64,000 bases of DNA from Escherichia coli (GTDB lineage: Bacteria; Pseudomonadota; Gammaproteobacteria; Enterobacterales; Enterobacteriaceae): NCBI RefSeq assembly GCF_048403405.1, contig NZ_CP183129.1, one strand, 5' to 3'. Under the pieces are notes generated by a model. The model searched no databases. It was not told where the DNA came from and saw nothing but the letters and a program-made list of their open reading frames with translations. Position 1 is the stretch's first letter, and every line of letters starts with the position of its first letter. Shown piece by piece: positions 19,738 to 20,160 of the stretch. A program made the translations under genes and the position numbers.

Positions 19738-19822
19738 GGTGGGGTTCCCGAGCGGCCAAAGGGAGCAGACTGTAAATCTGCCGTCATCGACTTCGAAGGT
19801 TCGAATCCTTCCCCCACCACCA
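19738..19822 (+). tRNA. tyrT: tRNA-Tyr (GUA anticodon), copy 1
   Basis: 85 nt GGTGGGGTTCCCGAGCGG...CCCCCACCACCA with long variable arm and encoded CCA. Confidence 0.97.
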
Positions 19823-19856
19823 TCTCAAGCATTACCTCAAAATTTGAATTACCCTT

Positions 19857-19941
19857 GGTGGGGTTCCCGAGCGGCCAAAGGGAGCAGACTGTAAATCTGC
19901 CGTCATCGACTTCGAAGGTTCGAATCCTTCCCCCACCACCA
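19857..19941 (+). tRNA. tyrV: tRNA-Tyr (GUA anticodon), copy 2
   Basis: Identical 85 nt sequence 119 nt downstream of copy 1. Confidence 0.97.
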
Positions 19942-20160
19942 TCACTTTCAAAAGTCCCTGAACTCTCAAACGAATCCGTAATTAAATATTCTGCCCAAGC
20001 GGGGAAGGATGAGAAGCTTCGACCAAGGTTCGACTCGAGCGCCAGCGAGAGAGCGTTGCCGCAGGCAACGACCCGAAGGGCGAAGCGCGCAGCGCTGAGT
20101 AATCCTTCCCCCACCACCATCACTTCCTGTAAATACTCAAAACCTGTTACTCCGAGCTAA
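19942..20160 (+). ncRNA. rtT: rtT-like tRNA-operon distal repeat region (contains tpr)
   Basis: Contains a second copy of the tRNA 3'-end-like motif aatccttcccccaccaccatcac (about 20100..20122) and repeated attctgcccaa; extent approximate. Confidence 0.45.
20009..20098 (+). CDS. tpr: protamine-like small basic protein
   Basis: 29-codon [32 protein letters not shown] inside the rtT repeat; arginine-rich. Confidence 0.5.

Follow-up and report, generated by a model that had tools for sequence, protein, structure and literature searches.

This stretch of Escherichia coli DNA carries the classical tyrT-tyrV-rtT-tpr operon, sited between purU and narI, in an ordinary and common copy-number form of the locus: two identical tRNA-Tyr genes, one complete RtT unit and the stub of a second. 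The whole 64,000-nt stretch is referred to here as the window, and positions are counted from its first letter. From the organization of the locus in the window, in other E. coli strains and across the Enterobacterales, we are highly confident of an account in which the tyrT operon is a modular array, its tRNA and RtT modules sharing their 3' processing and its make-up changed by recombination or slippage, and in which the Tpr ORF found within the RtT unit is most probably a chance reading frame.

The identity of the locus could be read from its surroundings. In the list of open reading frames, purU and narI flank the tRNA-Tyr/RtT locus, and the 725 nt between them are 100% identical to E. coli TUM14771, for which the RefSeq record gives the order purU, tRNA-Tyr, tRNA-Tyr, “RtT sRNA, processed from tyrT transcript,” narI. 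The original prediction, made from the letters of the sequence, had recognized here a tyrT-tyrV tandem, an RtT unit containing the tRNA 3' end, and a Tpr ORF; all of these are present, and all had been correctly named. Upstream of the tandem, a consensus scan placed a candidate tyrT promoter at 19660-19687 (+ strand), with a -35 element TTTACA, a 16-nt spacer and an extended -10 element TG-TATGAT; by consensus match only, the candidate agrees at 10/12 positions plus the TG, and reading of the sequence directly after it reveals a GC-rich discriminator, GCGCCCCGC. We take this site to be the classical, stringently controlled tyrT promoter. The distance from the promoter to the mature 5' end of the first tRNA predicts a precursor leader of ~41-43 nt at 19695-19737 (+ strand); the 5' leader of pre-tRNA-Tyr is removed by RNase P.

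Exactly two tRNA genes were detected by ARAGORN in the 64-kb window, both of them tRNA-Tyr(GTA) on the + strand. The first, tyrT (19738-19822), is an 85-nt class II tRNA with a long variable arm and an encoded CCA, and the second, tyrV (19857-19941), has the same sequence; each was also matched by the Rfam tRNA model, at 53.4 bits against a gathering score of 29. The predicted identity of the two genes is therefore borne out by ARAGORN, by Rfam and by string comparison over all 85 nt. Their description as “119 nt apart” holds for the start-to-start distance but not for the gap between them, the inter-tRNA spacer at 19823-19856 (+ strand) being 34 nt long; within this spacer the repeat search found a recurrence of AAGCATTACC from the tyrT leader. 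When flanks are included, the identity tract extends to 92 nt at 99% in the repeat search, and self-BLAST of the window aligned 19728-19824 with 19848-19943 at 97.9%. A 149-aa minus-strand ORF at 19674-20123 and other long antisense ORFs were discounted as spurious frames that arise when tRNA genes are read through.

Downstream of tyrV lies a single complete rtT repeat unit (19942-20119, + strand), homologous to those of K-12, its length of 178 nt given by the spacing of the 19-mer with which the modules end and made up of a 46-nt AU-rich spacer followed by the structured RtT RNA (19988-20119, + strand). The RNA is a full-length match to Rfam family RF00391, scoring 137.1 bits against a gathering score of 45 and covering model positions 1-130 of 130 without truncation; this is the only match to the family in the window, and it begins 46 nt past the tyrV CCA on the same strand as tyrV. 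At its end is a copy of the tyrV 3' end: repeat and pattern searches showed that 20101-20125 (+ strand) is exactly the same as 19923-19947 over 25 nt, comprising the last 19 nt of the tRNA, CCA included, and the 6-nt trailer TCACTT. A 21-mer, AATCCTTCCCCCACCACCATC, is present in exact form at 19804, 19923, and 20101, where 0.00 such occurrences were expected from 100 shuffles. The complete unit is followed by a truncated second one (20120-~20170, + strand), a stub of ~50 nt consisting of TCACTT and a diverged spacer that ends in ATTCTGCCCAA; the repeat search found ATTCTGCCCAA in the first rtT unit as well, and in K-12 and other strains the final unit is followed by the same stub. The repeated tRNA end proposed at about 20100 is thus real and starts at 20101, although “about 22 nt” was a slightly imprecise figure for 19 nt of tRNA and 6 nt of trailer; likewise, “rtT-type repeats” is apt for one full 178-nt unit plus a ~50-nt stub, but not if several units were meant. 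The internal repeats that self-comparison was expected to reveal were seen both by the repeat search and by self-BLAST.

No + strand terminator with a T-run was found downstream of the array in a terminator scan, and Rho-dependent termination was therefore assumed; the hairpin at 20264-20285 has the orientation of a narI terminator. The stub at 20120-20170 is probably the region of the Rho-dependent terminator, as termination presumably takes place ~225 nt past the CCA, which in the window corresponds to the stub near the repeated ATTCTGCCCAA (20160-20170). Minus-strand Rfam matches at 20254-20380 (rsmX, STnc100, istR) fell far below the gathering score and were rejected, since what they pick up is the narI terminator hairpin. 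A REP-like palindrome, TCGGAT-AAGCGAAGCGC-ATCCGA, was noticed by eye at 20205-20238, in the interval from the rtT stub to this hairpin; sequences of the rtT region have been described as resembling BIME/REP elements (PMC2965389).

The number of repeats was compared between strains by cutting each locus at the 19-mer and comparing the resulting modules. Every locus that was cut yielded two module types, a 119-nt tRNA module and a 175-179-nt RtT module, both ending in the same 19 nt and all in register at the 19-mer. The spacing of the 19-mer is 119 and 178 in the window and 175-119-178-178-178 in K-12, corresponding to the layout tRNA-tRNA-RtT plus stub in the window and tRNA-RtT'-tRNA-RtT-RtT-RtT, plus the stub as in the window, in K-12 (RtT' denoting the unit between the tRNAs). 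Other strains have three tRNA units and one RtT (DSM 103246), two tRNAs with four RtT units (JNE21-009) or three (M114), the arrangement tRNA-RtT'-tRNA-RtT (FORC_082), or a single tRNA with RtT (HUM3355), while CCUG 73778 and AVS0970 have two tRNAs and one tRNA, respectively, without RtT and with unrelated desaturase genes directly after. Among the strains examined E. coli therefore ranges from one to three tRNA units and from none to four RtT units, so that copy number varies for both modules. A census of complete E. coli genomes shows the allele of the window to be common: 1644/5426 (~30%, a figure made up mostly of the tRNA-tRNA-RtT layout and including some single-tRNA genomes) align to the window locus across 80% or more of its length, and a K-12-type inter-tRNA RtT' unit is carried by 1920/5426 (35%).

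Some of these alleles have features of their own. The first tRNA-Tyr of DSM 103246 (positions 1511-1595 of the locus record) has a C-to-T change, GGTGGGGTTTCCGAG, and the other two 119-nt units of this strain are identical to each other. In CCUG 73778 (locus record 1863-3367) and AVS0970 (1745-3249) the sequence departs from the usual one 16 nt past the final tRNA-Tyr, and genes of the fatty-acid and sterol desaturase families replace RtT and narI, suggesting the insertion of an island, or a replacement, at the tRNA 3' end.

To either side of the place where K-12 carries RtT', the two alleles are nearly the same: between the tRNAs, window and K-12 are separated by an exact 175-nt indel with the 19-mer on both sides, and apart from it a single base differs in the inter-tRNA stretch. 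That the 19-mer marks both edges of the indel supports recombination at this repeated sequence. A pattern scan in which each species was represented by one genome returned 103 loci from ~100 species, almost all of them Enterobacterales, with modules called by ARAGORN and an nhmmer profile of the unit. Every combination of modules is found among the 103 loci, with up to six RtT units. The inter-tRNA units form a separate sequence lineage, 21/25 of them having GGGTGAGAA(C/T), whereas the distal units mostly have GGATGAGAAG, and this lineage is common to Escherichia, Citrobacter, Klebsiella, Kluyvera, Leclercia, Phytobacter, and others; RtT' would on this evidence predate those genera. The distribution of the RtT' lineage, from which the direction was read in unrooted form, suggests that tRNA-RtT'-tRNA-RtT is the old arrangement and that the short-spacer form arises by the precise loss of RtT'. 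The opposite direction, in which the 34-nt spacer is ancestral and the K-12 layout was made by inserting an RtT unit between the tRNAs, would fit the frequent occurrence of tRNA-tRNA-RtT with 22-50-nt spacers in many genera, and the lack of an inter-tRNA unit in 65% of E. coli genomes. We nevertheless consider it unlikely, given that the inter-tRNA unit is a distinct lineage across several genera, and that the spacer from RtT' to the following tRNA (34-36 nt) is as long as the one between the tRNAs in the short alleles, just as precise excision at the 19-mer would leave it.

The wider set of loci also informs on the relationship between RtT units and the tRNAs they accompany. In loci whose retrieved sequence extends as far as the upstream tRNA, RtT units are always downstream of a same-strand tRNA-Tyr(GTA), with one exception, where the tRNA is tRNA-Gln. 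The 3' end of the RtT unit equals the 3' end of its own species' tRNA at 18/19 nt or better in 137/171 units, and this matching includes species with CCCCCGCCACCA or CCTTCTCCC variants in tRNA-Tyr. Together with the identity of tRNA copies, and of two 119-nt units in DSM 103246, this tracking of species-specific tRNA variants by RtT 3' ends amounts to concerted evolution within genomes.

A few loci of the scan stand apart in their setting. In a metagenome-assembled genome (MAG) of the Cellvibrionaceae (locus record 2804-3058), outside the Enterobacterales, tRNA-Gln(TTG) is followed after 58 nt by an RtT-like unit that ends in AATCCTTCCACCCCAGCCATATT, equal to the 3' end of that tRNA-Gln together with its trailer; beyond it comes a second unit, which is degenerate. 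In Acerihabitans arboris, Sodalis sp., and one further locus the order is thrU-tyrU-RtT(1-3 units)-glyT-thrT, with RtT inside the other tyrosine-tRNA operon. Enterobacterial tRNA-Tyr/RtT arrays also turned up in assemblies labelled Chryseobacterium sp. 18061 (Bacteroidota) and Martelella alba (Alphaproteobacteria), and these are probably contamination or mislabelled records. Members of the RtT family beside Asn and Lys tRNAs in Actinobacillus have been reported (PMC4986893).

RtT has a conserved RNA structure supported by covariation. In the window, the 5' arm of its closing helix, GGGGAAGGAT (20001-20010, + strand), forms an inverted repeat with the tRNA-derived ATCCTTCCCC at 20102-20111, and the repeat search found the two arms to be 100% complementary. 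An alignment of 86 distinct units gave, by RNAalifold, a consensus of 28 pairs that are 98.5% paired, in which helix 1, the closing helix, is 98% paired across the 86 sequences and joins GGGGAAGG(AU) with the tRNA-derived (AU)CCUUCCCC. Compensatory changes were seen at 11 pairs, against a mean of 3.1 in shuffled alignments, and 0/500 shuffles reached 11; at one covarying pair, for example, UA occurs in 43 sequences, CG in 19, and GC in 17. When one strand was slid along the other as a control, the paired fraction was at most 51%. Folded as a single sequence, the 178-nt unit of the window is not unusually stable (z = -0.92), and since this energy is not significant the structural support rests on the covariation. 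The invariant block AAGGTTCGA of RtT contains a 12-mer that the repeat search found to be 92% identical to the tRNA T-arm; its interpretation as a displayed T-loop mimic was rejected, because both the RNAalifold consensus and the Rfam model put the block within helices. A preprint on pseudouridine offered no evidence of modification of RtT.

RtT units might be selected companions of tRNAs rather than passive by-products, with a 3' end that must match the cognate tRNA. The possible functions of such a companion would be as a decoy or buffer for the processing or surveillance of tRNA 3' ends, or in the sensing of uncharged tRNA during the stringent response. Two features of RtT are compatible with such a role: its 3' end follows the variants of tRNA-Tyr, and in one case even a tRNA-Gln, and its 5' arm compensates such that the closing helix stays paired. 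However, gene conversion among adjacent repeats, free of any function, explains the pattern equally well, and selection for matching ends seems to us improbable.

The predicted arginine-rich Tpr ORF is present and intact in the window (20009-20098, + strand, from the ORF list), encoding 29 aa of which 9 are Arg, and its product is identical to that of the intact tpr unit of K-12. The repeat unit might then exist for the sake of encoding Tpr, a basic, protamine-like peptide, with the RtT RNA being merely its mRNA; a gene for a protamine-like protein was reportedly described at this repeat by Altman et al. in 1981 (Cell 26:299), and the frame has an ATG start with the purine-rich GGGGAAGG just upstream. 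Several observations make this a very unlikely reading. Among 164 homologous units, 110 stop at codon 6, that is, after only five codons, and the frame is broken in ~65%; at least 25 codons are kept in ~1/6 of the units, and the longer products vary in frame and sequence. Even within E. coli the frame is intact in only one of the four K-12 units, and 4/11 sampled strains (DSM 103246, FORC_082, STE15, and BEN5202) are without an intact 29-aa ORF, while the differences among E. coli copies of Tpr alter amino acids. The ATG and the purine-rich tract before it are both buried in the closing helix, which is conserved. Searches of Pfam and NCBIfam gave no family match for Tpr, and no CDS is annotated at its position in any RefSeq record examined. 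As judged from sequence comparison, the Tpr ORF, though present, is probably not a conserved gene, and in all likelihood it is a frame that is open in the RNA by chance, although it may still be translated in this strain.

That the repeats themselves might be a chance similarity or an assembly artefact, a thought favored only by the absence of the tRNA tandem, with just 1.7 copies, from the output of Tandem Repeats Finder, can be dismissed with near certainty, given the three exact copies of the 21-mer, the same architecture in a finished genome and ~1,600 others, and the agreement of Rfam and ARAGORN on the features.

Other repeats were found elsewhere in the window. Self-BLAST identified two 718-bp copies at 2044-2761 and 37105-37822, 100% identical, in direct orientation and separated by ~35 kb. 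Both include an ORF with the IS200-type transposase sequence HTRWNCKYHIVFAPKYRR and a full-length, minus-strand match to Rfam STnc490 (146 bits); an IS200-family element is probably present here twice, with the tyrT locus in between. Directly adjoining the second copy is a tandem duplication of ~487 bp (36071-36556 and 36607-37091, 96% identity), each half of which contains an rdlD-type antitoxin RNA (Rfam RF01813, 84-87 bits), so that the duplication looks like ldr/rdl type I toxin-antitoxin repeats.

A mechanism can be proposed for how the tyrT array is expressed and how it changes. One sigma-70 promoter, at 19660-19687, would give rise to a single transcript containing the two tRNA-Tyr, one RtT unit, and the stub. 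RNase P would cut the 5' ends of the tRNAs, RNase E would cut within the AU-rich trailers, and 3' exonucleases would trim the ends back to CCA. Because RtT and the tRNA share the 19-nt end and its trailer, the same 3' processing would free RtT, which would be released as a stable structured RNA with its tRNA-derived CCTTCCCC paired to the upstream GGGGAAGG. What the sequences themselves establish is the anatomy of the array, its homology and polymorphism, the covariation in RtT and where the breakpoints fall. Which enzymes act, how stable RtT RNA is, how transcription ends and whether the RNA has a part in the stringent response are matters that we take from the literature or infer. Inactivation of RNase E leads to accumulation of the tyrT-tyrV-tpr polycistron (PMC3082872), and the release of rtT RNA by processing, with a proposed modulation of the stringent response, is credited in later papers to Bösl & Kersten (1991, NAR 19:5863).

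As for copy number, recombination or slippage at the shared 19-25-nt ends, and between whole units, may shift the composition of the array. RtT and the tRNA share only these terminal 19-25 nt, so some of the events, such as the 175-nt indel, must use very short homology. A laboratory supF strain is on record as having lost a tRNA gene along with RtT (PMC12584984). The origin by unequal recombination within the tRNA operon, as put forward in the original prediction, is thereby supported from three sides: the variation in copy number, the 175-nt indel bounded by the 19-mer, and the loss in the supF strain (PMC12584984).

The value of the analysis is modest, as the locus is already known and the window has it in a common allelic form. 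It yields approximate allele counts for 5,426 genomes, indicates by comparison that the annotated tpr is unlikely to be conserved as a coding sequence, and shows that the RtT 3' end co-varies with the neighbouring tRNA across ~100 species. These comparative points, the unconserved Tpr frame and the co-variation of RtT 3' ends with their tRNA, are mildly new.

The tyrT/supF operon is a textbook locus, and its 178-bp repeat was sequenced in the 1970s. Egan and Landy are said to have found, in 1978, a 178-bp sequence repeated 3.14 times in the tyrT operon of K-12, and the tyrT-tyrV-tpr-rtT (rttR) operon of that strain was reportedly studied by Rossi et al. in 1981. The window is like this K-12 operon in its position between purU and narI, in its promoter and in its tRNA sequence, as well as in the 178-nt unit ending in the 19-nt tRNA 3' end, the Tpr ORF, and the downstream stub; it is unlike K-12 in copy number only, being without the diverged inter-tRNA unit and two of the distal units. 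Its RtT is a typical member of RF00391, with the closing helix and internal hairpins of the family model, and members of the family adjoin tRNA genes in other Gammaproteobacteria too, as they do in the window. The classical conversions of su3/supF doublets to singlets were reportedly ascribed by Russell et al. in 1970 to unequal crossing-over. Like such tandem tRNA arrays, the locus has two identical genes in direct repeat and natural alleles of one, two, and three copies; unlike them, it includes a second type of module, RtT, which shares with the tRNA only the terminal 19-25 nt.
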